Source: a virus. Taken from it: DNA of 38,034 nt. Shown one piece after another: positions 2,480 through 20,165 of this stretch (position 1 is the stretch's first letter; the number at the start of each line of letters is the position of its first letter). A program made the translations under genes and the position numbers. Location of the stretch: positions 1 through 38,034 of the IMG/VR virus record IMGVR_UViG_3300023099_000006, one strand, 5' to 3'. Under the pieces are notes generated by a model that was not told the origin of the DNA, made no database searches, and was given only the letters and a program-made list of their open reading frames with translations.

Positions 2480-4336
2480 ATGGAACCCAACAAAAATATC
2501 CTATCTATCATCAGAGGCGAGATAAGAGACTTCCTCTATAACTCTATTGAAATCGTACCTGGTTACGTGTTTAACCAATACGACACTATCAAGCGTTGTC
2601 ACCTGTATCTGAACTCACAATTTGAAGACCAAACATTCTATCAGGGAAGACCTAAGCTTTTTGATAACAAAATCAAGCCTAAGCGTGACCGTGTAGCAGC
2701 TTTTCTGAACATCGATACAAAAGACATCAAAGCCATCTCCCGCAGTGGTTCAGACAACCCTTACAAGATGTTGATAGCACAAAAAGAGCTTGATTATTAC
2801 CTCAAGGACAACGATTACGCCCAGAAACTTAACGACATGGCTGAAACATCAGTTGATTTCGGTTCAGTAGTTATTCGAAAGACTAATAAGGGTTCAGAGA
2901 CTGTTGACTTGCGCCGAATGTTTAATGACCCTACTGTTGAAAGCCTGCAGAAGTCACGTTTTCTTACTTTCAAACACCTGTTTACTTCATCCGAACTACG
3001 AGCAAAGGTTAAGGACGGATGGGATGAAGATGTTATCGAAGGAATTATCGAATGGAAGGAACGTCAGATGAACACCAGTAATGCTGGTTCTTCATATGAG
3101 CGTGACGGACAAATCAATATGATTCGTTCAACTCCATACATCGAAGTATATGAACGCTTCGGTGAGGTAGAGAAAGGTTTCTTAGATAAATCAAGTAAGA
3201 AATGGGACAAAACACTCGTTAAATCACTATTCATCGTTGCAGAACCAATGGCTTATTCTAAAGATGCCAACGGTCAATATATGGGTGAAGACGGAGGAAT
3301 ACTTTTTAAGTCAGCATGGACTAAGGATTATCCAGTAGATGAATATCATTACTACAAGACTCCAGGACGTTGGCTTGGTATAGGTGTTGTTGAATCATTG
3401 TTTATCCCACAAGAACGTATCAATGAACTAGCTAACCAGAAACGCTCATCAATGGAACTATCAACGCTCCACTTGTGGCAGACTTCTGAACCTACAATCG
3501 TTAACAACGTACTGACAGACCTACAAAATGGTGATGTGATGATTACAGGTCAAGCAGGGCTAAATCCTATCGTTAATGAAGAGCGTAACCTTGCTGCATT
3601 TGCTTCAGAAGAGCAATATTACCTTAATTCTATTGACGCTATATCATTTGTCTCACCACAAGCAGGAGGCGAACAGGTTCCTTCTTCTACTCCAGCTACT
3701 AATGCTGTTATCCAACAGAACAACACGCTTTCAGTGTTTAACTTCAAGCGTCAGAACTATGCTAACTTCGTTCGCCGATATCTTCGCAAGTTTGTATTGC
3801 CAGGATTGCTACGCCAGATGAGTGTTGAACATATTTTCCGTTTTGCTGGAGATTATGAGCAGATGACTAAGCTTAATCTCGGAGTTGCAACATCATTTGC
3901 TAACCAGAAAGCTCGTGAAATGTTCCTTAAAGGTACAATCGTTACACCTGAGGCTTACCAGGAGATTCTCATGAAGAACATCCAGTCACTCAAGGGTTCT
4001 CAGGAACTTCACCTGCAGATTAACGAGACCTGGTTCAGTGATATAGATTTGGACTTCGATATTCTTATTGATAACGAACAGCAGTCTACTGATGTTATCG
4101 CTAACAATACATGGCAGGTCATCCAAGCACTTTCAGCTAACCCAGAAGCTCTGCAACACCCTGTAACTCGAGCTCTTATCATGGATTATGCCGAAAAGGT
4201 AGGTATCAACCCAACTAAGCTTGAATCTATGGACATGAACCCAGCGTTACAACAGCAAGGACAGTCAATGCCTCAAGTACAAGCACAGCAAGCTCCAGTT
4301 GGTCAGGGAGCTACACAACCAGCTCAAGTAAGATAA
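2480..4336 (+). CDS. Portal protein (putative)
   Basis: 618-aa ORF directly downstream of terL, the usual portal position and size. Q-rich C-terminal tail. Confidence 0.7.
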   Translation: MEPNKNILSIIRGEIRDFLYNSIEIVPGYVFNQYDTIKRCHLYLNSQFEDQTFYQGRPKLFDNKIKPKRDRVAAFLNIDTKDIKAISRSGSDNPYKMLIAQKELDYYLKDNDYAQKLNDMAETSVDFGSVVIRKTNKGSETVDLRRMFNDPTVESLQKSRFLTFKHLFTSSELRAKVKDGWDEDVIEGIIEWKERQMNTSNAGSSYERDGQINMIRSTPYIEVYERFGEVEKGFLDKSSKKWDKTLVKSLFIVAEPMAYSKDANGQYMGEDGGILFKSAWTKDYPVDEYHYYKTPGRWLGIGVVESLFIPQERINELANQKRSSMELSTLHLWQTSEPTIVNNVLTDLQNGDVMITGQAGLNPIVNEERNLAAFASEEQYYLNSIDAISFVSPQAGGEQVPSSTPATNAVIQQNNTLSVFNFKRQNYANFVRRYLRKFVLPGLLRQMSVEHIFRFAGDYEQMTKLNLGVATSFANQKAREMFLKGTIVTPEAYQEILMKNIQSLKGSQELHLQINETWFSDIDLDFDILIDNEQQSTDVIANNTWQVIQALSANPEALQHPVTRALIMDYAEKVGINPTKLESMDMNPALQQQGQSMPQVQAQQAPVGQGATQPAQVR

Positions 4337-4337
4337 T

Positions 4338-4589
4338 ATGGATGATGAAACAAAACTAAAACTCAATAAGTTCGTAGCTGACCCTGACTGGTTTCTTGTT
4401 GAAGACATACTTATGTCATACATTGACCCTCTCAAGTCAGTGAGTTCTATCGATATGAAAGCTTCCAACGACCAAATCGCAAGTGAAGTCCGAGGAAGAC
4501 AGATTGCGATAGAGGGATTGACAAAGTTCCTCAATGAGATGAAAATAGTTAAAGCTAAACCAATTACAAACCCAACAACTTTTAAATAA
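4338..4589 (+). CDS. Hypothetical head-module protein (83 aa)
   Basis: ORF track. Starts 1 nt after the portal stop. Confidence 0.6.
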   Translation: MDDETKLKLNKFVADPDWFLVEDILMSYIDPLKSVSSIDMKASNDQIASEVRGRQIAIEGLTKFLNEMKIVKAKPITNPTTFK

Positions 4590-4590
4590 C

Positions 4591-4737
4591 ATGCATAAAC
4601 CAACACCAAAACCAAAAGGAAAGATGCTACCTGAAGCAGGACCAAACATGACTCCTAATCTTCGAAGAGCACTCAAAGCTCCTATTCCACCTTCAGTCAA
4701 GATGGATAAGAAATCACTAATCAAGGTATACAAATAA
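4591..4737 (+). CDS. Hypothetical small basic, proline-rich protein (48 aa)
   Basis: Hand-translated MHKPTPKPKGKMLPEAGPNMTPNLRRALKAPIPPSVKMDKKSLIKVYK. Fits exactly between neighbours with 1-nt gaps. Confidence 0.4.
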   Translation: MHKPTPKPKGKMLPEAGPNMTPNLRRALKAPIPPSVKMDKKSLIKVYK

Positions 4738-4738
4738 T

Positions 4739-4945
4739 ATGAAACATTCATTACAAAACGATAAGGGTCTCAACGCCACAAAGCCTGTTGAGCCGTACAC
4801 AAGTAAGATTCCTGTATCAGGTCCACGCAGTGCTCCGCAAGAACGTCTCTTGAACGGTAAACTAGCTTCATTCCGAAATGCTGAGAATGATGACGCGCCT
4901 ATACTCGTATCATACAACTCACCAGACCCTCGCAGACAGCGATAA
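4739..4945 (+). CDS. Hypothetical protein (68 aa)
   Basis: ORF track. Co-directional and tightly packed. Confidence 0.5.
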   Translation: MKHSLQNDKGLNATKPVEPYTSKIPVSGPRSAPQERLLNGKLASFRNAENDDAPILVSYNSPDPRRQR

Positions 4946-5025
4946 CATAACGGTATCGACCCGACCAAAACGAACAAACTTTAATACGGTATCATTGCCT
5001 ATATCAATGACTAAAACATATCATT

Positions 5026-5469
5026 ATGAATAATGAAGAAGAGCTAGACTTTGAGCTAGACGAAACCGTTGAGGAAGAGGAAACTCCCCAAGACAAACCT
5101 GAAGCGATTGATTGGAAAGCTACAGCTCTCCGATACAAGAAGAAGCTTGCTAATGTAAAAACTAACAAGCCAGCGCAAAAGGAAGACACATCAGAGACCA
5201 AATCTGAGCTCGCTCGCTTGGAAATGAGAATTGATGGATATTCGGATGAGGCCATCGCCTTCGCAATGAAGAATGGTGGAAAGGAATCTCTGAATGACCC
5301 ATACGTTAAGGCAGCTATCGAAGCAATTCAAGAGCAGAAACGCGCCGAACAAGCTACCGTAGCGTCGGAGACTTCAAAATCAGATATCGAGCGCAAATTT
5401 ACCCAAGAGGAAATCGCCGCTATGTCACCAGAAGAGATGTACAAGATTTTGCCAAAAGCAAGTCAGTAA
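5026..5469 (+). CDS. Scaffolding protein (putative)
   Basis: 147-aa, very acidic and helical (EEELDFELDETVEEEE...), immediately upstream of the capsid gene. Confidence 0.6.
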   Translation: MNNEEELDFELDETVEEEETPQDKPEAIDWKATALRYKKKLANVKTNKPAQKEDTSETKSELARLEMRIDGYSDEAIAFAMKNGGKESLNDPYVKAAIEAIQEQKRAEQATVASETSKSDIERKFTQEEIAAMSPEEMYKILPKASQ

Positions 5470-5545
5470 GCTCATTAAAAACTTAATAGTTCGCTCTCTT
5501 GTATTGAGGTGAAGTCATTTATTCTTTAATCTTTTTTAAATTAAA

Positions 5546-6457
5546 ATGCCTAGCTCTACTACTGGTTTAACAAACCTCATGAGTATCTACTACTCAAAAG
5601 AATTCCTAGCACGCGTTGAATTGGACACACGTTATGACTGGCTCGCGACAAAGAAGACAATGCCACTAAACAGTGGTAAGACTGTGTTCTTTAACCGTTT
5701 CTCTCGTCTTGCTGTTCAGACAACACCTCTTACAGAGTGTATCAACCCAACTGGTTTGGACATGAGTACAACAATCGTTTCAGCTACTATCGCTGAATAC
5801 GGTAACTACGTTAAAGTTTGTTCTCTGTTCGAACTTACATCTATTGATGAAAACCTCCGCGAACACGTTTCTGTGATTGCACAGAACGCTGCGGAGACAC
5901 TTGATATCTTGATTGCTGCAGAAATGTCAGCTAACTCAACTATCCAGTACGCTAATAACAAGGTTGCTGTATCTGCACTTGCGACTTCTGACACACTCGA
6001 TGGTCAGGATATCCGTCGTGCAGTTCGTACTCTTCGTCGTAACGGCGCTAAAGTTTTCTCAGATGGTTACTTCCATGGAATCGTTCCAGTATCATCAGAA
6101 TTCGACCTCCGTGCCGATCCTGAATGGTTGGACGCATATCGTTATACAGACGCTGAAAACATCCGCAATGGTGAAATTGGCCGTCTCCACGGTGTGAAGT
6201 TCATGGATACTAACGCTGAAGTCTCTCAAGCTTCTACTACTACAGTGTACTCATCGTTCATCGCTGGACGTGACGCGCTTGGTATCATTAGTCTTGCTGG
6301 ACAGCCTGGTTCACGTATTATCGTTAAGACTCCTGGAGATCAGGACACGTCTAACCCACTCAACATGTTTAGTACTGTTGGATGGCACGCATACTTTGTA
6401 GCCAAAGTTCTCAACAGTAGTTGGATTGTTCAGATTCTTGCAGGTACTCTTGCTTAA
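5546..6457 (+). CDS. Major capsid protein (HK97-fold; resembles the N4-gp56-type family from memory)
   Basis: 303 aa, positioned after the scaffold gene. N-terminal pattern YSKEFL...LNSGKTVFFNRFSRL...TPLTE...P.G is typical of that capsid family. Strong hairpin just downstream. Confidence 0.75.
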   Translation: MPSSTTGLTNLMSIYYSKEFLARVELDTRYDWLATKKTMPLNSGKTVFFNRFSRLAVQTTPLTECINPTGLDMSTTIVSATIAEYGNYVKVCSLFELTSIDENLREHVSVIAQNAAETLDILIAAEMSANSTIQYANNKVAVSALATSDTLDGQDIRRAVRTLRRNGAKVFSDGYFHGIVPVSSEFDLRADPEWLDAYRYTDAENIRNGEIGRLHGVKFMDTNAEVSQASTTTVYSSFIAGRDALGIISLAGQPGSRIIVKTPGDQDTSNPLNMFSTVGWHAYFVAKVLNSSWIVQILAGTLA

Positions 6458-6487
6458 ATCTAAACACATTCTGTAATCTGTTCGTTG

Positions 6488-6520
6488 CATGGGGGAAGTC
6501 TCACACGATTTTCCCCCATG
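6488..6520 (+). terminator. 10-bp perfect hairpin after the capsid gene (CATGGGGGAA / TTCCCCCATG, 13-nt loop)
   Basis: Read directly from the sequence. There is no clear T-run, so it may be an mRNA-stabilising or partial terminator. Confidence 0.5.
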
Positions 6521-6566
6521 TTCGTGTGACAATGAACAACAAGAGACGAACTAACTAATAACATTT

Positions 6567-6842
6567 ATGGATTCAAAAACATTTGAACAAAAAATTAAAC
6601 AGGAAATTGACCAAAGATTGTATCTTGAGCCGACCAACGAAACAGACCTTGACCGTGTCATGATTAACATTGAAGGAAAGCTCAAGCCTATCTATCTCTG
6701 TGCCTTTCCCAAGGCTGGAGTTAAGGAGGAGCTTGATTCAAACTATGTATCAGACCGTGGAGACGTATTCCCTAACAGAGAGATACTTGAAGCAAAAATA
6801 AGAACTAAGATTGACAACCTAGACCTAGAACTATATGACTAA
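6567..6842 (+). CDS. Hypothetical head-completion/connector-region protein (91 aa)
   Basis: ORF track; call is by position. Confidence 0.6.
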   Translation: MDSKTFEQKIKQEIDQRLYLEPTNETDLDRVMINIEGKLKPIYLCAFPKAGVKEELDSNYVSDRGDVFPNREILEAKIRTKIDNLDLELYD

Positions 6843-7182
6843 TGATATAAACCAGGAAGATTTTGCCAAGATTGACGCATCGGCATCACTTATTGCAAAG
6901 GAAAAGTTCAACATCAAGAAACAGGTTAATAAGCATTTCCTTGTAGAACCTTCTAGTGGCCAGGTATATATGATCGCATTTGGTAACGGAGAGAAGAATG
7001 AGACCAATCCAAAGGGTTTTTATGCCTACTGGGTGTGGTATTTCAATGAAGAACCGTACGGAGGGCTCATTAATTGTGTCCTTACTGACCGTTACGACTC
7101 AATAGACTACTTTGTATCTTGCATGGGTAACGCGGAAGAAACTATTAAGACAGTCATCAATGCCAAAGAAGAAAACAATTAA
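6835..7182 (+). CDS. Hypothetical protein (115 aa)
   Basis: ORF track. Has an 8-nt overlap with the upstream gene. Confidence 0.6.
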   Translation: MTNDINQEDFAKIDASASLIAKEKFNIKKQVNKHFLVEPSSGQVYMIAFGNGEKNETNPKGFYAYWVWYFNEEPYGGLINCVLTDRYDSIDYFVSCMGNAEETIKTVINAKEENN

Positions 7183-8122
7183 GATTTTGATGGTCAACAG
7201 ACCAGAAAATCAATGGATAGGGGGCGATTTCATCAAATTAAAAGCCGTAGCTGAAGAGTTGCGTCTTTTAGGTGTTGAAGTAGACATATTCGAAATGGAA
7301 ACACTTGGTATGAACGAATGGTACGGAGTTGAGAGCTACGATATTGTACATACCTGGAACTTCTCTATGCTTTGGAGCAAATATGCCATCTGGTTGGGAG
7401 GAAAGAAAAAGAAAAAGCTTGTTTCGTCGATGATTTATCACGACACAGATGTTTTCATTGATTACAAGCTTCAACAGGTGATGATGGACCACATGGACGC
7501 CTGCATTTACGAGACTGAAAGCGAAATCGAACGAGTAAAGAAACATCTTACCCCAAAGAACTCACATATTATTCCAAATGGCGTAGATTCATGGTGGTTT
7601 GAGCCAGATGAGGGAAATGTACCATTCGAGGGCTATGTGCTCACTGTGGGCCGTATAGAGCCTAATAAGGGGCAATTAGCGACTGCAGAAGCATGCCGTG
7701 AGCTAGGATTGCAATACGTCTGCATAGGCGAGATAACAGACCAGGTTTACGCAGAGAAATGCCTTGCGCAAGGTGCAATGCTTTATCCAGCTATGACCAA
7801 GGAAAAGTTAAAGCGTTGGTACAAGAATTGTGCTGTCTATGCCCAAGTATCTAAGAGTGAAACATGGGGAATGGCGGTTGATGAAGCTGGTACGCAAGGT
7901 GCTCGATTGGTTTTATCCACTGGATTCGAGAGACAAGACATACCAGACGCTGTATACTGTGATCATGACAATACAAACCTTATTACCCAAGCGTTACAGC
8001 AAGCACTTTCTCAGCCGAGAGGAGAAAGATTTAAGTTACAGCTCAAAAAAAGGACGTGGAAAAAGCACGCGCAAGAAATCCTCAAAATCTACAAAGAAAT
8101 CTTAAAACAAACAAATGAATAA
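7160..8122 (+). CDS. GT-B fold glycosyltransferase (GT1/GT4-like)
   Basis: C-terminal pattern SETWGMAVDEAGTQGARLVLS resembles the E-x7-E motif of GT4 enzymes. IEPNKGQ is also typical. Start chosen at ATG 7160 (MPKKKTIKILMV); the track ORF begins at 7112. Confidence 0.7.
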   Translation: MPKKKTIKILMVNRPENQWIGGDFIKLKAVAEELRLLGVEVDIFEMETLGMNEWYGVESYDIVHTWNFSMLWSKYAIWLGGKKKKKLVSSMIYHDTDVFIDYKLQQVMMDHMDACIYETESEIERVKKHLTPKNSHIIPNGVDSWWFEPDEGNVPFEGYVLTVGRIEPNKGQLATAEACRELGLQYVCIGEITDQVYAEKCLAQGAMLYPAMTKEKLKRWYKNCAVYAQVSKSETWGMAVDEAGTQGARLVLSTGFERQDIPDAVYCDHDNTNLITQALQQALSQPRGERFKLQLKKRTWKKHAQEILKIYKEILKQTNE

Positions 8123-8765
8123 AAAATTTTCAATCATCTGTCCTACATTTAACCGACCTCACATGATTAACCGTGCAATCATGGCTATTCTTGACCAAGA
8201 TTACGATAACTGGGAGCTCATCATTCAAAATGGTGGAGATACTATAAAAAATATAGTGCCAAAAGATCCTCGCATTAAACTCTTTGAAGAAAAAGATAAC
8301 GGTATTACCGACGCCATGAACAAGGGTATGGCTAAGGCTACAGGTGATATATTTACTTGGATCAATGATGACGATGAAATGAACCAGGAAACACTTAAAT
8401 GGGTTGATGAAAACCTAGAAAAAGAATGGGGATATGGAATCATTATGATGACTGATGGTACTCGAAGCTTTGAATGGGGAGATGTAGGGACTAATGCTAC
8501 ATTCACTAACTTAGTTGAAGGAAACTTTGTACCACAACCTTCAGTCTTTTGGACTCGGAAGGCTTATGAAACAGTAGGTGGAATGGATGAATCAGAAGAC
8601 CTAACAAGTGACTATGAATACTGGATGCGTCTTTGGAAAGCATTTGAACCTCAGAAGTTTCAGAGACTTATGGCAACCTATCACTTGCACCCAGGACAGA
8701 TTACACAGACTCAAACCGAAGAGCAGATGCGTCAAGCTCGAGAGACAGCTAAGAAATACCGATAA
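8115..8765 (+). CDS. Family-2 (GT-A fold) glycosyltransferase
   Basis: N-terminal FSIICPTFNRPHMINRAIMAILDQDYDNWELIIQNGG and an acidic DxD-type motif WINDDDE. Confidence 0.75.
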   Translation: MNKKFSIICPTFNRPHMINRAIMAILDQDYDNWELIIQNGGDTIKNIVPKDPRIKLFEEKDNGITDAMNKGMAKATGDIFTWINDDDEMNQETLKWVDENLEKEWGYGIIMMTDGTRSFEWGDVGTNATFTNLVEGNFVPQPSVFWTRKAYETVGGMDESEDLTSDYEYWMRLWKAFEPQKFQRLMATYHLHPGQITQTQTEEQMRQARETAKKYR

Positions 8766-9127
8766 TGAATCCAGCAATTCTACCAGAGTTGGAAAGACTG
8801 CTGCCTGAGAGAGGCTATTTCGTGGAAGTCGGTGCTTATGACGGCGAATCTCACTCTTTGACATGTGCTTTGGCTGACAAGGGATGGTCAGGAGAATACT
8901 TCGAACCTGTACCAGAGTATTACGAACGCTGCAAGAAAAGACATGAGCAAAACGATGTAGGAGTTCATAATCTAGCAATAGGCGATGGTTCAGAGATTAC
9001 ACTCAATGTAAATGGTGAATTAACTTCATCAAAATCATATGTTGCAGAAGTATTCGCTAACGCTGGATGGACCGTTGACGAACATTTATTAGAACATTTT
9101 CAATTTGTAGTTGCACATAATGAGTAA
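8765..9127 (+). CDS. FkbM-like SAM methyltransferase, unusually short (120 aa)
   Basis: FVEVGAYDGESH (motif I-like) and YFEPVPEYYERC resemble the FkbM/Methyltransf_21 N-terminal half. I could not see the C-terminal half. Confidence 0.45.
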   Translation: MNPAILPELERLLPERGYFVEVGAYDGESHSLTCALADKGWSGEYFEPVPEYYERCKKRHEQNDVGVHNLAIGDGSEITLNVNGELTSSKSYVAEVFANAGWTVDEHLLEHFQFVVAHNE

Positions 9128-9998
9128 AATATTAATTACTGGAGGAGAAGGATTTGTAGGACGTGCTTTTGTACGCCTTTTGAAGGACGAACATCAATTA
9201 TATATTGTAGACTTAAAAACTAATGGAGACTGCCGTGATTTCTTTAAGAACTCTACAGAACAGTTTGATTTAGTTATTCATCTAGCAGCTATTGTTGGAG
9301 GTCGTATGATGATTGAAGGAAACCCTATAGCAGTAGCTACGGACCTTTCTATTGATGCAGAAATGTTTAATTGGGCAGTAAAGACTAAACAACCACGAGT
9401 AGTGTATTTCTCCAGTAGTGCAGCATATCCAATCGCTTTACAAAGACAAATGCCTTATAGATATCTTACCGAAAGTGATATTAAATTAAATGGTGACTTT
9501 ATCGGGAATCCTGATATGAGTTATGGTTGGTCTAAAATCACTGGTGAGATGCTCGCGGAATATGCCCGAAAACAAGGTGTAAACGTCCATGTGTTCCGTC
9601 CTTTTAGTGGATACGGTGAAGACCAGGACCTGGATTATCCATTCCCTTCATTCATCAAGCGCGCAAAGGACAAGGTTGAAGAGTTCGAGATATGGGGAGA
9701 CGGTACGGCAGTTCGTGATTTCATTCACATCGATGACATCTGCGAAGCTGTAATGAAAGCAGTTGAATTGGATATCCAAGAACCAATTAACCTAGGAAGC
9801 GGAGTGGGTACCTCATTCAACGAATTAGCTGAAAAGGTAATGGAAATTTCTGGTCTTAAGGTACCCATCAAACACCATGTTGATAAACCAGTTGGAGTTA
9901 TGTACCGAGTAGGGGATAATAGTAAGATGTTAGAATTTTACACTCCTAAAATTTCACTCGAAGAAGGGATTAAGCGTTCACTTGAATATGGAAAATAA
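9120..9998 (+). CDS. NAD-dependent sugar epimerase/dehydratase (extended SDR)
   Basis: ILITGGEGFVGRAF (GxxGxxG), YGWSK (YxxxK), GDGTAVRDFIHIDD. Confidence 0.8.
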   Translation: MSKILITGGEGFVGRAFVRLLKDEHQLYIVDLKTNGDCRDFFKNSTEQFDLVIHLAAIVGGRMMIEGNPIAVATDLSIDAEMFNWAVKTKQPRVVYFSSSAAYPIALQRQMPYRYLTESDIKLNGDFIGNPDMSYGWSKITGEMLAEYARKQGVNVHVFRPFSGYGEDQDLDYPFPSFIKRAKDKVEEFEIWGDGTAVRDFIHIDDICEAVMKAVELDIQEPINLGSGVGTSFNELAEKVMEISGLKVPIKHHVDKPVGVMYRVGDNSKMLEFYTPKISLEEGIKRSLEYGK

Positions 9999-11145
9999 AC
10001 CAAAAATACTTCTAATTTCGACCGATTGGAGTCAAAATACTTACAGGACAATTAATAACAAACCTGGTGCTATTTCACAGTACCGTCTTATCTATCCTAT
10101 GCGTTACTTAGAGGAATACTATGACATCGATTATGTAGGTCCTGATTTCGCTGACAAGGTTGCAGGAAAAGACAAAGGTGCTGCATTTCATCGTTTCTTT
10201 TCTGATTACGACATGGTAATTAGTAAGATTACAGACAACCCTACAGCTGCTTCTGATATTCGATTCATGACTAGATATCTCGGTGTTGTTTTGGTAGTGG
10301 ACATCGACGATAACATTTGGGAACTCAAGCCAGATCAACCAGGATATGAAATCTATAACAAGGGAGGTGCAAGACTTGGCTTTGCTTCCACATACGTTTC
10401 AAATGCAGACGCGGTGTTTTCATCGACCAAACCTCTCGCTGATTACATCTCAAACCGAATGAAAGAAGCTCATGGTGAAGATAAACCTGTTTATGTATTA
10501 CCTAACTGTGTAGACACTAACGACTATCAGTTTCAAAAGGCTAAATTAGACCCAAATAAGATAGTTATCGGATGGCAAGGTTCTACTACTCACCATGAAG
10601 ACCTCAGAATTGCTATGCCAGCTATCGGAAAGCTTATGCAAGAATACCCAAATCTCTACCTAGAGCTTATGGGCGGTGTTTCTGACGAGATGGTAGGTGA
10701 TTTGTTTAAAGATATGCCAGAAGAATTACTTGAAAGAGTGAGAACTATCGGAGGAGGACCAGCATTTGACACCTTTCCTCATCTTTTAAGCGAGCAGGCA
10801 TGGGATATTGCTATTGCTCCTATCACAGACCATGCTTTTAATCATGCTAAGAGTCATATCAAGTGGATGGAATACGCAATGTATTCGATTCCTTGTGTTG
10901 CTTCAAAGGTTTACCCCTATTACATGCCCATCCAAGGAACCGATACCATCGTAGACGGAACTACAGGGCTTATCGCAGACGAAAAAGAATGGTATGATAA
11001 GTTGAAGTTACTTATAGACAACAAAAATCTCAGAGAAGAGATTGGAATAAATGCAAACATGTATGTTTCAAAGCATTGGCATATAAAAGAACATGTTAAA
11101 AAATGGAAAGAAGCAATAGACATGTTGTTAGAATCTAACTCGTAA
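9988..11145 (+). CDS. Second GT-B-like glycosyltransferase
   Basis: IVIGWQGSTTHHEDL...YPNLYLELMGG and KWMEYAMYSIPCVAS resemble the C-terminal Rossmann half of GT-B enzymes. Alternative start TTG 9982. Confidence 0.55.
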   Translation: MENKPKILLISTDWSQNTYRTINNKPGAISQYRLIYPMRYLEEYYDIDYVGPDFADKVAGKDKGAAFHRFFSDYDMVISKITDNPTAASDIRFMTRYLGVVLVVDIDDNIWELKPDQPGYEIYNKGGARLGFASTYVSNADAVFSSTKPLADYISNRMKEAHGEDKPVYVLPNCVDTNDYQFQKAKLDPNKIVIGWQGSTTHHEDLRIAMPAIGKLMQEYPNLYLELMGGVSDEMVGDLFKDMPEELLERVRTIGGGPAFDTFPHLLSEQAWDIAIAPITDHAFNHAKSHIKWMEYAMYSIPCVASKVYPYYMPIQGTDTIVDGTTGLIADEKEWYDKLKLLIDNKNLREEIGINANMYVSKHWHIKEHVKKWKEAIDMLLESNS

Positions 11146-11184
11146 CAGCCACAAACTGCCTGCGGGTTGGATTTTGGTAATATG

Positions 11185-11214
11185 CTAGACATTCTTCATA
11201 TAAATGTTCTATAC
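11185..11214 (+). promoter_or_regulatory. Candidate sigma70-type promoter for the tail genes (TAGACA, 18-nt spacer, TATACT)
   Basis: Hexamers read in the 102-bp gap between 11145 and 11248. Confidence 0.3.
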
Positions 11215-11247
11215 TAATTTTAGCTTTTGTGGAGCGTCTATATACAG

Positions 11248-11934
11248 ATGACTTTTACCCAATTAGTAACAGAATCAAGAAGACTAGTTAAAGCAACAGA
11301 AGTTGCCTACCCTATTTCAGAAGTTACAGATAGTTTAAATCGAGCACTTGATAGTGCTGTTTCATTGATTCGTCAAGCAGAGGGACGTTGGCAGTGGCAA
11401 GACACCAATGACTCAACTGCTCCTTATTCCTCTACAACCACTATTACGTCAGGAACAAATCAAATAGTAATAGACCCTACATATGAAAGAGTGCAACGAG
11501 TAGCAATTAAAGCTCCTGGAGCAACTTATTTCACAAAACTCATACCGTTTGACGTAGCTGACCCTAAGTGCTTGGACATGTATAACACTGCACAAACTGG
11601 TGTTCCTACTCATTACGATAAGATGGGTAAGTATTTTATCCTGTATCCTACTCCTAACTATACACAGGCAAACTCATTCCAAGTTTTCTATGAACAAGGT
11701 CCTAGTTATTTTACAACAGCCGATACTACAAAAGCACCAGGAATAGAGCCATTGTTCCACCGATATCTTTCTCTTAGCGCTGCTTACGATTACGCGATGA
11801 TCAACCTCACTAAGGTAGCTGGCACTATTCGTCAGGAAATGGCTTTGATGGAAAAGAAAATACAAGATTTTTATGCTCACCGTGATAAGGATGATAAACC
11901 ACAAATGAGAGTTAGAACTCAAAGTTTTAGATAA
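11248..11934 (+). CDS. Virion protein, possibly head-to-tail adaptor or tail tubular protein A-like
   Basis: 228 aa from ATG 11248 (track ORF 11227). First gene of the tail block; the call is positional only. Confidence 0.4.
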   Translation: MTFTQLVTESRRLVKATEVAYPISEVTDSLNRALDSAVSLIRQAEGRWQWQDTNDSTAPYSSTTTITSGTNQIVIDPTYERVQRVAIKAPGATYFTKLIPFDVADPKCLDMYNTAQTGVPTHYDKMGKYFILYPTPNYTQANSFQVFYEQGPSYFTTADTTKAPGIEPLFHRYLSLSAAYDYAMINLTKVAGTIRQEMALMEKKIQDFYAHRDKDDKPQMRVRTQSFR

Positions 11935-12713
11935 TGCCGCCAACAAATTTAAAAACACTTGAAAATAAAATTATACAGCTTGAGAATGAAATCAAGCTTT
12001 TAAAGTCTGGCTTACAACTTCATCAACATACAATCAGTGACGGAACTAGTGTGTTGAGAAAGAATATTCAATTAGATGCAGATCAGTGGTTGGCAATAGG
12101 TCCTGCTCAATTACTTTCACAAGTTAGAAGCACAGGATCAACAAGTAATGATTTCACAGCGTTTTCTATCGCTGTAGGTTCTGATCCAGTTACATTGCCA
12201 GCTAACTATAAGTCAGCAGACATGCAGTTAAACATGCTTCATTTTGAGAAGGATACTAACAAGTATTCTTATTTGACTTGTGCCCGAAGTCCGTTGGTTG
12301 CGTCATATGAAAATACTAGTATCTCTGTAACTTCTGGCGGGAACACAGTTACGATAGCAGGTTACAACTTTATTACTAATGAACTAACAGGTGCTTATAT
12401 AAACATAATCAACTCATCGGGGGCATTGGTTGAAACCCGTAGAATTACTTCAAATACTGCAACCGTTATTACTATCACTGGAACATGGGGTGCTTCTACT
12501 TCAGGAGGTAAATTCAGTATTTATACTCCTACCTTTATTGGGAAGACTGATTCAATCTTTCGCCGATTATATATTGACGAGGGAAACACTGACGGAGGAG
12601 TTCGATTTGGACCTGGTGCAACTTCTAATGGACAAAACGGACTACTGTATATGGACGCAGCAGGAGATCTCCAATGGCGAACTAAGGCAGGGGTAGTAAC
12701 CAAATTAAACTAA
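11934..12713 (+). CDS. Virion/tail-associated protein (259 aa)
   Basis: ORF track. ATGA-type junction with the upstream gene. N-terminal coiled coil, then a Ser/Thr/Gly-rich beta-type sequence. Confidence 0.5.
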   Translation: MPPTNLKTLENKIIQLENEIKLLKSGLQLHQHTISDGTSVLRKNIQLDADQWLAIGPAQLLSQVRSTGSTSNDFTAFSIAVGSDPVTLPANYKSADMQLNMLHFEKDTNKYSYLTCARSPLVASYENTSISVTSGGNTVTIAGYNFITNELTGAYINIINSSGALVETRRITSNTATVITITGTWGASTSGGKFSIYTPTFIGKTDSIFRRLYIDEGNTDGGVRFGPGATSNGQNGLLYMDAAGDLQWRTKAGVVTKLN

Positions 12714-12714
12714 T

Positions 12715-14733
12715 ATGCTTCAAATTCCACCACCTGACACACATACATTCATTCAACCGAACAACTCAGATTTGCACGGTAATATTTTCTATACTAAAAA
12801 CATCAACTTTGACGATCAGGGTTATTTGACATTATCAGCTGCACCAAAGGCAGTGATAAACAACACCATAGATGCTGATTTTGATAACTGTGCAGTAATT
12901 ATAAGGTCTGAAGACCACGGTTACCTCGCAGTCACATGGGATGAACTTTTTAATGTAAGTAATGATATTTTAGCTAATACTCCAGTGCAGAATACTGACG
13001 TTGGGGTACCTCAAGGAGATGTTGAGGCAGACGCCGCGTGGTTCAGTGGAAAACTTGTAGTCTCGCAAGATACTGACGTTGATTATTATGACCCAGTGAC
13101 AAATGCTTGGGTTGATACAAATATCTCTCTAACGGGAGGTAACGCAAACCAACACCCAGTCGTAAACTTTCTTTCTTATAATCAAGTTGCGATTGCTAAC
13201 GTCAACACAGTAGGGGTTTATGCAACTCCAATCACTGCAACACCAGTACTAGTGAACACACTCACCATTTCAAGTGATTTTACAATCACCTCAATGGTTT
13301 ATTTCAACCAAAACCTTTATGTAGGAACTCGTAGTGCGTTTGGTGGTAAGGCAGCACTGTATGTATGGAACGGACAGGGCACGGGAGCACAAGGTGTCTT
13401 TGAAGTAGACTCTAATATCATCTTTGACATATGTGTGTTTCAGGAATCTATTATTGTTTTCACGGGAAATGCAAGATTATTGAGATTTAATGGCTCGGGA
13501 TTCTCTCCTTTGGCTGAATTCCCAGCATTTTATGCAAACCAACACCTTACATCAGAAGGAGGCCTCAATATTTACCATAACTGCATGAAGTCAAATGGTG
13601 ATATACTTTACATATCTTTTACTGATGACGAAAACCAAAACCAATTATTGCTCAATCAACCGTCAGGAATTTGGTGCTACGATCCAAAAGTTGGATTGTA
13701 TAACCGTTATTCTCTGTCTAATTCTATTGTAACTAACAAGGCATTTTTAGTGGTTGACACAGCGACAGATCAAATAACAGTCACTTCTCCAGCTGTTACT
13801 ACTGGAACAGAAGTCTATTACAGTGTTAATGGCGGTACAGGAATTGCACCCCTTGTTGATGAAACAAAATACTTTGCAATTTATGTGGACGCTACACACA
13901 TAAGACTTGCAACAACATTAGCCAATGCTTTAGCTAATTTTTATATTAACCTCACAACTACTGGTTCAGGATCAGCAGAAAAACTTGTTTTCTACCCAAA
14001 GACTGATTACGGACAATTCTTCAATGAACGTCAGGTTGGACTTTATGCAATAAACCTTCCAGTACAAAACACTCAATATGGTACAGATTTAATATGGGGA
14101 GGAGAATTAGGTAGCAGAACAATTCCTACAGCTGGTGATGAATATCTTGGTTCTGTATCTATGGGTGTAGAATCACGAGGATATTTCGTTACTCCTAAAG
14201 TTTTTTCTACAAATGTAACTGATACATACAATCAAGTTTCTATTAAATACACTCCATTAAACGAACTTGATAAAATCATAGTTAAATTCAGAGTTACAGA
14301 TGATAATATGAACTCCATAGACCTTTCAGATTCAAACTTCTGGGCTATTACATGGACAAGTACTAACACTTTCACAACTGTCGATACACGATTCTCTGGG
14401 GCTGTTATAGGAAATGAAATCGAAGTACTACGAGGAGCCGCAGGAGGATTACTTGCACATATCACTGATATTACATTTAATGCAGGAACTTATACGGTAA
14501 CGATAGATGAAACTTTTACGGACTATATTTCAGGGGACAAGTCTTTGGCTATTTTCAGAAATTGGACAAAGCTTATGACTATTACCAGTGCCGACAGTGA
14601 TGAATACAAAATGGCACAGATTGCCAAGACAGGTACTTTCATTCAATTAAAAATAGAATTGCGGGGTATCGGAGTAAAAATTGAAGCCGTGCAGATAGAT
14701 AACGTAACCCAATTACCAGCAAAAATGACATAA
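12715..14733 (+). CDS. Large tail structural protein, possibly tail tubular protein B/nozzle-like
   Basis: 672 aa, beta-rich repetitive composition. Size and position match the podovirus nozzle protein. Confidence 0.45.
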   Translation: MLQIPPPDTHTFIQPNNSDLHGNIFYTKNINFDDQGYLTLSAAPKAVINNTIDADFDNCAVIIRSEDHGYLAVTWDELFNVSNDILANTPVQNTDVGVPQGDVEADAAWFSGKLVVSQDTDVDYYDPVTNAWVDTNISLTGGNANQHPVVNFLSYNQVAIANVNTVGVYATPITATPVLVNTLTISSDFTITSMVYFNQNLYVGTRSAFGGKAALYVWNGQGTGAQGVFEVDSNIIFDICVFQESIIVFTGNARLLRFNGSGFSPLAEFPAFYANQHLTSEGGLNIYHNCMKSNGDILYISFTDDENQNQLLLNQPSGIWCYDPKVGLYNRYSLSNSIVTNKAFLVVDTATDQITVTSPAVTTGTEVYYSVNGGTGIAPLVDETKYFAIYVDATHIRLATTLANALANFYINLTTTGSGSAEKLVFYPKTDYGQFFNERQVGLYAINLPVQNTQYGTDLIWGGELGSRTIPTAGDEYLGSVSMGVESRGYFVTPKVFSTNVTDTYNQVSIKYTPLNELDKIIVKFRVTDDNMNSIDLSDSNFWAITWTSTNTFTTVDTRFSGAVIGNEIEVLRGAAGGLLAHITDITFNAGTYTVTIDETFTDYISGDKSLAIFRNWTKLMTITSADSDEYKMAQIAKTGTFIQLKIELRGIGVKIEAVQIDNVTQLPAKMT

Positions 14734-14764
14734 TTGTCAATATACCTTATACTAAATCACATAC

Positions 14765-16267
14765 ATGGCTACTTCTCCAATTTTAAAATCTTCGAAGACA
14801 AATAGCACTTATAATATTAAGACAGGCGAACTTTCTAATGGTCCTACTGTTTATGCACCAAATACTGTTCTTCGTAATACTGATGCTCAAAATCAGGTAC
14901 TAGCTAATGCAAACCCCCAAGCTTTCGATGTTGCAGCTAACATGGCAGGATTTTCTAATTTTCCTGTTTCCCAGTCAAACATTCCTTCTGTTGTACCCGT
15001 ATCAGGTCTAAGTGCTACACCAGTTAATTTAATGCCCACACAAGTGCCTACAGCCGCTGTAGGAGGCATTGCAGCTCTTGGTCAACAGGCTCTAAGTGTT
15101 CAGGACCAATTCCTTCAACAACAACAGGCACAACTTGCTTCACAACAGAATCAAGTTACCACTCAGCAGAATGGTATCGCAGATGTCTATACTCGTCTTT
15201 TTGGTCAAGCTAATAGAAATGAAGACATTTATAAAGATTTAGGAGTAGATGATGCTCAAAAGGCAGTAAACAATTACACTTCACAAATTGAACAGGAGCA
15301 ACTCGCTAATCGTCGGCAAATAGAAGAACTTCAAAAGAATCCTAACGGTATGACAGCACAGGCACTTTCTGCAACTACACAAGAAGTAAATCGTAAGAGT
15401 CTATCACAGCAAGCTGACTTAGCTGTTCTTCAAGGTGCAGCAGCTCGTAACTTTGATGCCGTATCTTCAGCGGCAGACCGTAAGATTGCAGCAGAAACAG
15501 AAGGACTCAAACTAGAACTTCAAGCTAGACAATTCTTTTATCAAGAGAATAAGGAGGATTACAACAAGACTGAACAACGCATTTACGAACAGCAGAACAA
15601 GAAGATTGAGACAGAGATTAAGAACAAAGAAAATGGTCAGAAAATGATTGTTGAAGCTGTATCTTTTGGAGCTCCTAATGCAGTCATTCAACAAGCACAA
15701 GCTGCATACAATAATGGTGCAAGCCCTACAGAAATTGCAAGAATCATAGGAACTTACACTCCTGCAGGATTAGCAGCTCAAACAGAACGTTTACAGCAAC
15801 AAAATATTCGTAGTCAGATAGCTGAAAGACAGCAAGCAGGGAATGCAGCTGGAACTATTAATGGTAAACCTCAAAATGCAACACAGGCTACAGCTAATAC
15901 GTATGCAAATCGTCTAGCCGAAGCTAATGTGACCCTAGATACTCTTGGAGGGAAATTCACAGGAGTAGGAACTGCAATCGGTAATGTGTTGGGAGGTTTA
16001 GTTCCTAATTTCTTGAAAGGAGGAGATAGACAAGCTGTTGAACAAGCACAAAAGAACTTTGTTACTGCCATCCTTCGACGTGAATCAGGTGCGTCTATCG
16101 CTCCTACTGAATTCCAAACTGCCGCAGAAATTTATTTCCCTCAGCCAGGAGATAAACCAGAAGTTGTTCAACAAAAAGCTATCACTCGTAATAGTGCAAT
16201 CAATAACTTTTATAAGGAAGCTAATGCATTTAGACCAGTATTACCAGGTCAGATAATTCAGAGTTAA
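14765..16267 (+). CDS. Internal virion/ejection-type protein (putative)
   Basis: 500 aa, Q/A-rich and coiled-coil-like (QQQQAQLASQQNQVTTQQ). Position after the nozzle-like gene. Confidence 0.4.
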   Translation: MATSPILKSSKTNSTYNIKTGELSNGPTVYAPNTVLRNTDAQNQVLANANPQAFDVAANMAGFSNFPVSQSNIPSVVPVSGLSATPVNLMPTQVPTAAVGGIAALGQQALSVQDQFLQQQQAQLASQQNQVTTQQNGIADVYTRLFGQANRNEDIYKDLGVDDAQKAVNNYTSQIEQEQLANRRQIEELQKNPNGMTAQALSATTQEVNRKSLSQQADLAVLQGAAARNFDAVSSAADRKIAAETEGLKLELQARQFFYQENKEDYNKTEQRIYEQQNKKIETEIKNKENGQKMIVEAVSFGAPNAVIQQAQAAYNNGASPTEIARIIGTYTPAGLAAQTERLQQQNIRSQIAERQQAGNAAGTINGKPQNATQATANTYANRLAEANVTLDTLGGKFTGVGTAIGNVLGGLVPNFLKGGDRQAVEQAQKNFVTAILRRESGASIAPTEFQTAAEIYFPQPGDKPEVVQQKAITRNSAINNFYKEANAFRPVLPGQIIQS

Positions 16268-16269
16268 TT

Positions 16270-17784: not shown

Positions 17785-17890
17785 ACCCTATTATCATAAT
17801 TAAGCAAAATGCTTTAAATATGAAATAAATTATTGTTATCATATTTTTGATACTACAGTACATTACAAAAACGTCAATAACTTTATCCAC

Positions 17891-17919
17891 TTGCAACAGT
17901 TCTTCACTAGTTCTATAAT
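17891..17919 (+). promoter_or_regulatory. Well-formed sigma70-type promoter: TTGCAA, 17-nt spacer, TATAAT
   Basis: -35 at 17891..17896 and -10 at 17914..17919, in a 240-bp AT-rich gap upstream of gene 18025. Confidence 0.55.
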
Positions 17920-18024
17920 AAGAGTGTAGTCATATCGACTATGAGAACTTATGAATTCGCACAATATATCTTTCGCGACACTAAATATTAAACAAATGGT
18001 TCTTAAATCAGGATATACTAGTAC

Positions 18025-18618: not shown

Positions 18619-18639
18619 GGATTCACTTCCCTGTTTTTT
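18617..18639 (+). terminator. Rho-independent terminator after the HEPN-like gene
   Basis: AGGGA / TCCCT stem, 6-nt loop, then G + TTTTTT (18634..18639). Confidence 0.6.
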
Positions 18640-18724
18640 ATTGAAATTTTGAGGCTCTAGAATCGTTTTTAAGCCCTTCTTTATCAAAACTTGATACCAT
18701 GGTAGTGTATACTTAACGTACAAA

Positions 18725-18829: not shown

Positions 18830-18833
18830 AAAT

Positions 18834-19328: not shown

Positions 19329-19342
19329 AAATAATCAAACTG

Positions 19343-19370: not shown

Positions 19371-19376
19371 TCTCCC

Positions 19377-20159: not shown

Positions 20160-20165
20160 GTTTTA

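Follow-up and report, generated by a model that had tools for sequence, protein, structure and literature searches.

The window, by which we mean the whole 38,034-nucleotide stretch of DNA that was analysed, is a complete 38-kb phage genome with five sugar-handling genes between its capsid and tail genes. All five were found as overlapping open reading frames spanning positions 7160-11145, where the preliminary description had reported them, and every feature discussed below lies on the + strand. Pfam searches backed the assignments, and AlphaFold and Foldseek provided that of the last gene, GT5. The encoded enzymes had been described as sugar-active, which was borne out by profile and fold matches, with catalytic motifs intact in four of the five. 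Upstream are the major capsid protein gene (MCP, 5546-6457; phrog_1357, 7.4e-58; Phage_capsid_2), a gene for a lineage-specific small protein of 91 aa, F0 (6567-6842; a family of 139 clusters at 50% identity), and a gene for a 115-aa small protein, s2 (6835-7182). The locus ends at the gene for an SU10-type head-tail adaptor (11227-11934; PF24175, 7.3e-12), so that its placement between head and tail genes was correct. In a comparison set of 52 loci from about 50 relatives, the MCP gene forms the fixed left edge of the glycan slot (52/52) and the adaptor gene its fixed right edge, lying 3' of GT5 in 47 loci, which is every locus where an adaptor was detected, and directly downstream of it in most. 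The s2 family (F15) was present in only four loci, all from close relatives of the window, and s2 gave no Pfam, PHROG or NCBIfam match.

Cassette enzymes and operon structure

The first cassette gene, GT1 (7160-8122; family F2), encodes a GT4-family GT-B glycosyltransferase that matched Glyco_transf_4 (31.6 bits) and Glycos_transf_1 (29.2 bits) above the Pfam cut-offs and has an intact EX7E motif at residues 234-242. It is followed by GT2 (8115-8765; family F3), a GT2-family (GT-A) glycosyltransferase (PF00535, 2.5e-19) with an intact DDD motif at residues 85-87 and no predicted transmembrane helix. Both are variable members of the cassette, F2 occurring in 21/52 loci and F3 in 17/52. The fourth gene (9120-9998; family F1) encodes an extended SDR nucleotide-sugar epimerase/reductase (PF01370, 8.9e-34) with intact GxxGxxG (8-14) and YxxxK (135-139) motifs. 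Its best PDB match was GDP-mannose 3',5'-epimerase (2c59, 3.7e-28) and it matched the NCBIfam GDP-L-fucose synthase model at 5.8e-31, under the cut-off; by sequence it is closest to enzymes of GDP-hexoses, namely GDP-mannose epimerase and GDP-fucose synthase.

The third gene (8765-9127; family F19) had been called a short FkbM-like methyltransferase. Its membership in the FkbM family stands (Methyltransf_21, 2.2e-7, although below the TIGR01444 cut-off), but it is not a compact enzyme. The match covers only positions 1-68 of the 173 in the Methyltransf_21 profile, the protein aligns with residues 15-93 of a 196-aa homolog, and it lacks a conserved C-terminal block that family members of 196 and 212 aa share. 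The gene is a truncated copy encoding only the SAM-binding N-terminal half, and its product is probably inactive.

Using ATG starts at 7160, 8115, 8765, 9120 and 9988 reproduces the reported overlaps of 23, 8, 1, 8 and 11 nt exactly. Automatic gene calling put the GT1 start at 7190, which removes the overlap with s2, and homolog alignment favours 7160. The cassette resembles the flanking late genes in composition, as had been claimed, with a GC content of 0.402 against 0.401 and a codon usage that lies 0.337 from that of the remaining late genes, no farther than any single late gene does. Promoter- and terminator-like sites within the cassette showed no excess over shuffled sequence. The spacer between the MCP and F0 genes (6458-6566) contains a stable stem-loop with G5/C5 arms (MFE -29 kcal/mol, z = -3.0; 0/200 shuffles folded as well), which a terminator scan did not call because no T-run follows it, and which may be an attenuator or mRNA-stabilising element ahead of the cassette. 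Searches of the window ORFs of at least 80 aa revealed neither an integrase nor a repressor, and the reported lack of a lysogeny module in the window was confirmed.

The conserved glycosyltransferase and the variable slot

The core GT-B glycosyltransferase, GT5 (9988-11145), gave only a weak Pfam match in its window copy (Glycos_transf_1, 2e-3, under the cut-off), but its AlphaFold (AF2) model has a clear GT-B fold (pLDDT 95), and Foldseek matched it to the GT4-type enzymes GlgM, PglA, MshA, BshA, SdgB and TarM at about 1e-15. Eighteen residues are invariant across 51 GT5 sequences, and GT5 does not have the Glu that canonically opens the EX7E motif of GT4 enzymes. GlgM, MshA, BshA, TarM and PglA act on non-protein acceptors, so that the fold alone is no sign of a protein substrate. 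A Methylomirabilota homolog of 28% identity lies in a flagellar hook operon (FliK-FlgD-FlgD-FlgE-GT-...-FliM), and in Calditrichota, Acidobacteriota and Verrucomicrobiota the homolog is a domain of 2,600-4,000-aa proteins that join GT2, GT4, methyl- or sulfotransferase domains and TPR arrays. On sequence grounds these cellular relatives point to protein substrates. The flagellar-operon context represents one independent lineage. Among phages, gp5 of Streptomyces phage Zuko aligns with 71% of GT5 at 27% identity.

In capsid-selected IMG/VR loci, where GT5 was scored only if at least 5 kb of sequence lay downstream of the capsid gene, GT5 was found downstream of that gene in 41/41 relatives (25/25 with at least 9 kb, 16/16 with 5-9 kb). 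One locus, L071, was an apparent exception in which GT5 is intact under genetic code 25. GT5 identity tracks MCP identity over 1,326 pairs (r = 0.86; adaptor, 0.45). These two results strengthen the earlier view that the genes are an integral part of the late structural operon, inherited vertically with it, rather than a recent insertion. We infer that GT5 acts on a conserved acceptor.

F0 was present in 47/52 loci. Bacillus phage Pony, whose capsid is related, has neither F0 nor the cassette. The AF2 model of F0 (pLDDT 89) has an alpha-beta3-alpha fold for which a fold search returned no significant match; F0 could be a glycan acceptor or a targeting subunit. The interval between F0 and GT5 ranges in length from 362 to 7,891 bp and in content from no gene to about 11, with 73 protein families in 42 ordered architectures across the 52 loci, and its content differs even between phages whose MCPs are 97-98% identical. 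The gene classes found there include GDP-mannose dehydratase, DegT, GT2, GT4, deacetylase and PhyH, while in 10/52 loci no recognised sugar-pathway gene separates F0 from GT5. A scan of the cassette proteins from 10 loci predicted no transmembrane helix, and no flippase, polymerase or priming transferase occurred among the Pfam-annotated cassette families of the 52 loci. The "five-gene operon" is not the right unit: judged from these gene orders, the functional frame is F0 ... GT5, fixed around a hot-spot at which nucleotide-sugar and glycosyltransferase genes are swapped. A large podophage lineage without cultured members has F0 and GT5 among its core genes, and the region is one case of the "capsid-side glycan locus" that defines this lineage. 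The one relative with code 25, together with several binned with Patescibacteria, suggests CPR hosts. The insert changes rapidly while its frame stays constant, a pattern that recalls O-antigen loci and suggests that an exposed glycan on the virion is under diversifying selection.

Proposed acceptor and role of the glycan

The best explanation, to which we give a probability of roughly 0.5, is that a virion protein receives a lineage-specific glycan in the cytoplasm by a lipid-independent route. The gene overlaps and the lack of excess internal promoter- or terminator-like sites suggest that the cassette would be co-transcribed late with the head genes. Because all of the enzymes are soluble, the chemistry would be cytoplasmic and carrier-free, requiring no lipid carrier, flippase or oligosaccharyltransferase, and genes for these are absent. 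Judging from its nearest relatives, the SDR enzyme would convert a host GDP-hexose, probably GDP-mannose, to an epimerised or 6-deoxy sugar. GT5 would recognise a conserved acceptor of the phage, with the MCP, F0 and the adaptor as the likeliest choices, and attach a sugar to it, and GT1 and GT2 would extend the glycan. Since the FkbM gene is a truncated remnant without the C-terminal half of its full-length relatives, the glycan of the window phage is probably not methylated by its product, and the methylated glycan proposed earlier is doubtful for this phage. The MCP and the adaptor are candidate acceptors. The earlier proposal included Ser/Thr-rich virion proteins among the targets, but C-terminal tails rich in Ser/Thr, as reported for the capsid and tail-tube proteins of mycobacteriophages, were not seen. 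Several observations count against a virion acceptor: the adaptor's conserved N-x-S/T motif also occurs in the adaptor of a phage without GT5, the F0 fold is unrecognised, and several enzymes matched by the GT5 fold use acceptors other than proteins. Ordinary polysaccharide loci also hold the same gene classes as the cassette, and GT5 lacks the first EX7E Glu, its window copy falling below the Pfam cut-off.

The preliminary description had offered two hypotheses, virion decoration and remodelling of host polysaccharide. Neither is proven, and decoration fits better because none of the 52 cassettes holds a membrane, flippase, priming or polymerase function, because timing and position match the structural genes, and because the cellular GT5 relatives indicate protein substrates. 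Host-surface remodelling of the "auxiliary metabolic gene" kind, which we regard as unlikely, would have soluble enzymes modify lipid-linked or wall-polymer precursors of the host at the cytoplasmic face; host exporters would then display the glycan, blocking superinfection, preventing re-adsorption of progeny to debris or altering adhesion. TarM, which acts on wall teichoic acid, and PglA are among the best GT5 fold matches, O-antigen, capsule and teichoic-acid loci typically carry these classes of gene, and soluble glycosyltransferases can use host exporters, so that the missing flippase is not decisive. Such genes on putative Patescibacteria phages have been interpreted in this way (PMC12911398). 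However, the position is fixed in the head-tail structural block, GT5 co-diverges with the capsid, late co-expression would leave little time to display a new surface polymer, ten loci carry GT5 without a recognised sugar-pathway gene, and the transmembrane scan of 10 loci found no membrane component. Serotype conversion, moreover, normally pays off in lysogens, and the window has no integrase or lysogeny module.

A non-virion acceptor seems improbable. This could be a host protein (pilus, S-layer, flagellar subunit or defence factor), or else a soluble glycoconjugate or small molecule, an MshA-, BshA- or GlgM-type product that would help replication or lysis. It would agree with the small-molecule or glucan acceptors of the top fold matches GlgM, MshA and BshA, with a flagellar-operon homolog indicating a family able to serve host appendages, and with the lack of a structural-protein signature in F0. 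A conserved host target is nevertheless hard to square with extreme cassette turnover between near-identical phages, the locus lies inside the head-tail genes, and the cassette has no associated transport or secretion function. We consider it very improbable that the sugars are placed on modified phage bases to evade restriction, as in T4. T4-type DNA glucosyltransferases are GT-B enzymes, and in E. coli phapecoctaviruses the GT5-like genes are four tandem glycosyltransferases beside primase, DNA methyltransferase and DNA polymerase genes. DNA hypermodification by virus-encoded glycosyltransferases has been documented (Pyle et al. 2024, as cited in PMC12619734). But neither a DNA polymerase nor a thymidylate-synthase-like enzyme, dCMP/dUMP hydroxymethylase, deazaguanine or other base-modifying enzyme was found in the window, the cassette lies in the structural rather than the replication module, and DNA glycosylation does not typically involve multi-step deoxy- and amino-sugar pathways that include polysaccharide deacetylase and PhyH.

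Comparison with known systems

A precedent, summarised in PMC12619734 and PMC11256854, is the glycosylation of capsid and tail-tube proteins that mycobacteriophages themselves encode. According to these summaries, glycosyltransferases, sometimes with methyltransferases, have been proposed or shown to decorate structural proteins in actinobacteriophages Che8, Corndog and Myrna (Freeman et al. 2023), by cytoplasmic chemistry that, like that proposed for the window, is independent of host periplasmic machinery. As described there, these phages are siphoviruses of Actinobacteria, whereas the window lineage is a podophage lineage; cluster F1 phages carry the glycosyltransferase genes near the genome 3' end rather than between capsid and adaptor; and the acceptors are capsid or tail-tube C-termini of a kind not seen in the window. 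Their glycosyltransferases have no sequence relation to the window enzymes beyond the superfamily, and a conserved anchor glycosyltransferase with a hypervariable cassette was not found described in the same summaries.

Flagellin O-glycosylation by FlmG and Maf (PMC7591256) is similar in that one or more soluble GT-B enzymes transfer sugars sequentially from nucleotide-sugars onto a self-assembling protein before assembly, with no lipid carrier or oligosaccharyltransferase and with sugar-biosynthesis genes clustered with the transferase. FlmG, a cytoplasmic flagellin O-glycosyltransferase, combines TPR and GT-B domains (PMC7591256), an architecture also found in the giant cellular proteins that contain a GT5-like domain, and the 28%-identical homolog in the Methylomirabilota flagellar hook operon adds to the resemblance. 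GT5, however, has no TPR or other substrate-binding domain, which F0 might, speculatively, supply in trans, and the window sugars are not nonulosonic acids.

The locus shares its gene classes, and its conserved flanks around a highly variable central gene set, with bacterial loci for O-antigen and capsule and with the serotype-conversion (Gtr) modules of phages. It differs from them in lacking a Wzx, Wzy or ABC transporter, a priming phosphoglycosyltransferase and any membrane protein of the GtrA/GtrB type, and, unlike Gtr modules, it is not beside an integrase or attachment site in the window. Chloroviruses and mimivirus (PMC8456856) likewise encode their own nucleotide-sugar enzymes, such as GDP-mannose 4,6-dehydratase, and glycosyltransferases for the capsid, and their glycans also vary in composition between lineages. 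Those are eukaryotic viruses with large genomes, where such genes are either scattered or grouped into large clusters, whereas in this 38-kb phage the locus takes up about 10% of the genome and occupies a single defined slot.

The cassette and its setting

The five sugar-modification genes that the preliminary description had placed within the virion structural module were confirmed by the ORF map as five consecutive ORFs on the plus strand (7160-8122, 8115-8765, 8765-9127, 9120-9998 and 9988-11145), and the overlaps are exact at 23, 8, 1, 8 and 11 nt, with ATG starts. The first overlap requires the ATG at 7160; the automatic caller took the ATG at 7190, but alignment of homologs favours 7160. 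Pfam and PHROG searches identified terminase, portal and major capsid protein (MCP, 5546-6457) genes upstream of the cassette, and an SU10-type head-tail adaptor gene (11227-11934) followed by genes for large tail proteins downstream. The cassette runs in line with the head genes, in the same orientation, and its genes overlap their neighbours. GC content is 0.402 in the cassette and 0.401 in the flanking late genes, with indistinguishable codon usage.

Positions 1-127 and 37908-38034, the first and last bases of the window, are identical over 127 bp. Identical ends of this kind mark a circularly closed assembly or a genome with terminal redundancy, and the window is thus taken as a complete, circularly assembled genome of ~37.9 kb. 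Pfam and PHROG scans of window ORFs of at least 80 aa detected no integrase, repressor or recombinase, in agreement with the earlier statement that a lysogeny module is absent. Megablast analysis of the region against GenBank phages gave no match and thus no close DNA relative. A promoter and terminator scan of 4300-13000 found sites to be no commoner than in shuffled sequence. The spacer between the MCP gene and F0, a small core protein of 91 aa (6567-6842), contains a stable G5/C5 stem (6458-6566; -29 kcal/mol, z = -3.0, 0/200 shuffles as good); this hairpin could act on the transcript, by attenuation or stabilisation, at the junction of the abundant capsid gene and the enzyme genes. No unusual structure was seen in the spacer between the last cassette gene and the adaptor gene. 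Elsewhere in the window, the stretch from 17000 to 21000 has a low GC content (0.30-0.35, against about 0.40). It is the site of the only minus-strand genes of any size (19629-20159 and 20166-20426) and of a predicted transmembrane protein (18834-19328), none of the three with a family match.

The last gene of the cassette (9988-11145), designated GT5, is the core GT-B enzyme. Its AlphaFold2 model (pLDDT 95, pTM 0.93) has two Rossmann-like domains with an inter-domain cleft, the arrangement of the GT-B fold. Foldseek matched the model to the GT4-type enzymes GlgM, PglA, MshA and BshA (E 1e-15 to 1e-13, TM 0.6-0.72), and SdgB and TarM were also among the matches (E about 1e-15). GT5 is accordingly predicted from its modelled fold to be a GT4-like glycosyltransferase of the GT-B type. 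The window copy scores 18.1 bits with Pfam Glycos_transf_1, below the gathering cut-off of 26.4, and a precomputed PF00534 match is present in many members of the family. The second Glu of the EX7E motif is invariant (E295 in K292-W-M-E295); the residue eight positions before it is not Glu, and K288, S289 and K292 are conserved there. No extra substrate-binding domain was found in GT5.

Among the other enzymes, the first (GT1, 7160-8122) is a GT4 glycosyltransferase by Pfam (Glyco_transf_4, 31.6 against a cut-off of 28.5 bits; Glycos_transf_1, 29.2 against 26.4) with the EX7E motif ETWGMAVDE at residues 234-242, and the second (8115-8765) is a GT2 (GT-A) glycosyltransferase (PF00535, 70.3 against 23.3 bits) with DDD at residues 85-87. 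The fourth (9120-9998) is an extended SDR nucleotide-sugar epimerase/dehydratase (PF01370, 117.4 bits) with the NAD(P)-binding motif GGEGFVG (GxxGxxG, residues 8-14) and YGWSK (YxxxK, residues 135-139). Its best match among solved structures is GDP-mannose 3',5'-epimerase (2c59, 3.7e-28), with GDP-L-fucose synthase near, and since these are its nearest relatives its substrate is probably a GDP-hexose; the reaction is left unassigned, as the NF047922 score (SDR, GDP-L-fucose synthase) of 108 bits lies far below the equivalog cut-off of 500. While these glycosyltransferase and SDR assignments agree with the preliminary description, the "short FkbM-like methyltransferase" (8765-9127) does not. 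This ORF matches only positions 1-68 of the 173-position Pfam profile, scores 30.6 against a cut-off of 37.7 with TIGR01444, and, at 120 aa, is shorter than its homologs of 196 and 212 aa, aligning to residues 15-93 of the 196-aa protein and lacking the C-terminal block common to both full-length family members. Judged by its sequence, it is a truncated remnant without a complete FkbM domain, and the closest relatives of the window carry a full-length Methyltransf_23 gene in its place.

Gene order and slot content in relatives

A GT5 search of IMG/VR returned 11 loci with an MCP homolog upstream of GT5 and, where detectable, an adaptor homolog just after it. Because sampling on GT5 itself was to be avoided, a profile was built from the MCP, and the best 80 of 348 IMG/VR relatives were fetched. 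Among these best 80, all 25 loci that extend at least 9 kb beyond the MCP gene carry GT5 downstream of it, as do all 16 that extend 5-9 kb. Furthermore, GT5 identity tracks MCP identity with r = 0.86, against 0.45 for the adaptor. This retention and co-variation, with the matching composition, strongly support the earlier view that the genes are integral to the late region.

What is integral, however, is not the five-gene operon as a unit. Across 52 non-redundant loci the genes run MCP, F0 (47/52), variable slot, GT5, and an adaptor gene was detected after GT5 in 47. Between the MCP stop and the GT5 start lie 362 to 7,891 bp, F0 included (median 3.5 kb). Over the 52 loci this interval contains 301 ORFs, which fall into 73 families (43 singletons) and 42 different orders. 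Products of the slot genes include GT4, GT2 and SDR enzymes, several unrelated methyltransferase families, GDP-mannose 4,6-dehydratase, C-methyltransferase, cupin, DegT aminotransferase, a TOD1/MUCI70-like glycosyltransferase, PhyH dioxygenase, polysaccharide deacetylase, a radical-SAM/SPASM enzyme, UDP-glucose dehydrogenase, an RGP-family protein, a cytidylyltransferase (the longest member fused to a NUDIX domain), a Cpn10-like protein in loci with a duplicated GT5, and HNH/NinG endonucleases (6 loci). In 10 loci only F0, with or without one or two further small ORFs, precedes GT5. Slot content differs even between phages with 97-98% identical MCPs. At greater distance, MW202801 (MCP 27% identical) has the whole arrangement with another cassette, and Bacillus phage Pony (capsid 32% identical) lacks both cassette and F0. 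The five-gene operon of the preliminary description is therefore one allele of a locus made of two fixed genes and a replaceable insert.

The slot endonucleases (family F11, 6/52 loci) may drive cassette exchange; in loci L008 (7550-8032) and L018 (7406-7903) they lie directly 5' of GT5, and the window carries NinG and HNH genes of its own outside the slot. In a sub-lineage of three loci (L009, L010 and L011, about 6300-10200) the cassette is replaced by a Cpn10 (GroES)-like gene, a divergent small protein and a 325-344-aa protein, and GT5 occurs as two tandem paralogs. A GT5-like gene (26-28% identity) is also found in E. coli phapecoctaviruses as one of four tandem glycosyltransferase genes, beside genes for primase/helicase, DNA methyltransferase and DNA polymerase.

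For F0, a single-sequence search returned the query alone, and the homologs were obtained by profile search. AlphaFold2 gives it a confident alpha-beta3-alpha fold, for which searches of PDB and BFVD yielded no significant match (best BFVD hit E = 0.066, unnamed). F0 could be the acceptor of the glycan, could act in trans as a targeting subunit in place of a TPR domain, or could be a head protein unrelated to the glycan. Several homologs of ~145 aa (P0145, P0173, P0181, P0183, P0211 and others) have an extra C-terminal tail of ~40 residues, acidic and rich in Val, Glu and Thr, which is absent from the 91-aa window copy and may be a flexible exposed extension.

Candidate targets of the glycan

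In a scan of 10 loci no convincing transmembrane helix was found in the cassette proteins, and no flippase, polymerase, ligase or priming phosphoglycosyltransferase occurs among the annotated slot families. These absences point to a cytoplasmic pathway with no lipid carrier of its own. Ser/Thr-rich tails were found on neither the MCP (which ends "...QILAGTLA") nor the adaptor or the tail proteins; the highest Ser+Thr windows are internal, and terminal low-complexity tails are absent. The motif W-x-(W/F)-D-D-x-N-x-(S/T)-D, present in about 80% of the adaptors of the lineage (residues about 55-66), matches the D/E-x-N-x-S/T sequon, but it was dropped as evidence because MW202577, a phage without GT5, carries N-S-T at the same place. 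This motif is probably a feature of the adaptor fold; a PDB sequence search with the adaptor gave nothing significant.

Further downstream, a 1,049-aa ORF (20774-23923) that matches nothing in Pfam or PHROG has a higher Ser+Thr content (23%) than any other in the window; its product could belong to the fibre, the injection apparatus or the virion interior, and is also a conceivable glycan acceptor. A 191-aa protein (24039-24614) shows weak similarity to an H-type lectin domain (PF09458, 4e-4, under the cut-off) and to tail-fibre PHROGs, and may be a carbohydrate-binding receptor-binding protein.

The closest cellular homologs of GT5 occur in two settings. Two Methylomirabilota genomes encode a stand-alone homolog within the flagellar hook operon, with flgE on one side and fliM on the other; since tblastn found no flagellar neighbours for the other cellular homologs, this context belongs to one lineage only. 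In Calditrichota, Acidobacteriota and Verrucomicrobiota a GT5-like domain is part of proteins of 2,600-4,000 aa which join several GT2/GT4 domains and a methyl- or sulfotransferase to long TPR arrays. These proteins, represented by L030 6041-13951 (Calditrichales), L032 2609-11068 (Acidobacteriota) and L036 5042-17017 (Verrucomicrobiota) at 2,636-3,991 aa, appear to be uncharacterised "assembly-line" glycosylation enzymes. FlmG, which likewise combines TPR and GT-B domains, is a soluble enzyme that O-glycosylates flagellins in the cytoplasm, with the TPR domain serving substrate recognition (PMC7591256).

We consider it about an even chance (roughly 0.5) that GT5 glycosylates a conserved phage protein directly, and that the cassette sets the composition of the glycan. 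This reading is favoured by the cytoplasmic character of the genes, their position among the head genes, the cellular relatives, the lack of a base-modifying enzyme, and the mycobacteriophage precedent, in which glycosylation of capsid and tail-tube proteins by phage-encoded enzymes is treated as established in PMC12619734 and PMC11256854 (citing Freeman et al. 2023). The acceptors of the GT5 fold matches, however, are varied and include teichoic acid, small molecules and glucan, and this leaves room for other targets: remodelling of the host surface by the cassette is unlikely, and a non-virion target other than host surface or DNA seems quite improbable. Glycosylation of DNA would fit the context of the GT5 relative in Escherichia phage nepoznato (NC_052658.1, 104046-107190), which hints at DNA or another replication-linked target, but Pfam and PHROG scans of the window ORFs of at least 80 aa found no enzyme for a hydroxymethylated or otherwise modified base, which argues against it, and we regard it as highly improbable. 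Virion glycosylation is the best-supported mechanism, though unproven.

A fuller picture built on virion glycosylation is possible, and is offered tentatively. The podophage lineage, probably infecting CPR/Patescibacteria, would carry a virion "serotype" locus in which GT5 primes a virion protein, with F0 as acceptor or targeting subunit. A recombination hot-spot, sometimes with HNH genes, would swap in whole sugar pathways, so that near-identical phages would display different surface glycans under diversifying selection, the equivalent for virus particles of O-antigen variation. On this picture, many of the "nucleotide-sugar AMGs" of environmental phages would be structural-modification genes.

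Hosts, implications and known systems

Four of the five best GT5 matches in GTDB (one genome per species) are phage-sized contigs binned into Patescibacteria MAGs, which reflects either mis-binning or a host signal. These contigs (L015/L021, L022, L024 and L025) were assigned to Minisyncoccia, Paceibacterota, Nomurabacteria and the Parcubacteria group. Independently of the binning, one relative, L071 (IMGVR_UViG_3300009537_000070, 10001-16363; MCP 50% identical), reads TGA as a sense codon. Of the 14 in-frame TGA codons in its conserved proteins, 8 align to Gly; TAA and TAG do not occur in frame, and all its genes are intact under genetic code 25. The GT5 of this locus had been considered a pseudogene, a genetic-code artefact that disappears under code 25. 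To our knowledge, Gracilibacteria and Absconditabacteria, both CPR lineages, are the only users of this code. The Patescibacteria binning and the recoded relative together make CPR hosts likely for the lineage, with the window itself on the standard genetic code.

The most interesting result, which goes beyond the preliminary description, is that a large uncultured phage lineage combines a core glycosyltransferase linked to the capsid with a cassette that is swapped in the manner of O-antigen genes. As far as we know, virus-encoded glycosylation of virions has been demonstrated mainly in actinobacteriophages and giant viruses. If the locus glycosylates virions, the phenomenon would extend to small podophages of uncultured, probably CPR, bacteria, and could be a core, capsid-linked trait with O-antigen-like diversity. 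Diversity of this kind would mean that the virion surface is under strong selection, with host lectins or receptors, defence systems, grazers and particle adhesion as examples of possible causes. A common practice in viromics would need correction as well: nucleotide-sugar and glycosyltransferase genes on phage contigs are either taken as host-directed AMGs, as with the O-antigen reading of comparable genes on putative Patescibacteria phages (PMC12911398), or discarded by contamination filters (PMC12960796). The frame MCP-F0-[slot]-GT5-adaptor provides a simple genomic marker to find such loci, and glyco-engineering could draw on the slots as a natural library of glycosylation modules that are soluble and independent of lipids.

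The searchable literature yielded no account of this locus, and one candidate paper on Acinetobacter phages ("RNA and Sugars", PMC8402811) proved irrelevant to phage-encoded glycosylation. The locus works like the glycosylation systems of flagellin, actinobacteriophages or giant viruses, but is not demonstrably a member of any of them. Phage DNA glycosylation needs a base-modifying enzyme, and the scans of window ORFs of at least 80 aa detected none. Gtr serotype conversion uses the GtrA flippase, GtrB and a type-specific glycosyltransferase beside integrase/attP, whereas the cassette proteins have no transmembrane helices and no integrase was found in the window. With cytoplasmic flagellin O-glycosylation the cassette shares soluble glycosyltransferases, clustered sugar genes and independence of a lipid carrier or oligosaccharyltransferase. 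FlmG carries a TPR substrate module; the window GT5 has no extra domain, cellular GT5 homologs are fused to TPR arrays, and F0 could act in trans. With virion glycosylation of the actinobacteriophage type the locus shares phage-encoded glycosyltransferases, three of them in the window, but the acceptors there have Ser/Thr-rich C-terminal extensions of a kind not seen on the window MCP. Cluster F1 mycobacteriophages have their glycosyltransferase genes near the 3' end of the genome, and the mycobacteriophage case thus differs from the present one in gene position as well as in C-terminal acceptor tails, morphotype, host and the anchor-plus-slot organisation of the window lineage.
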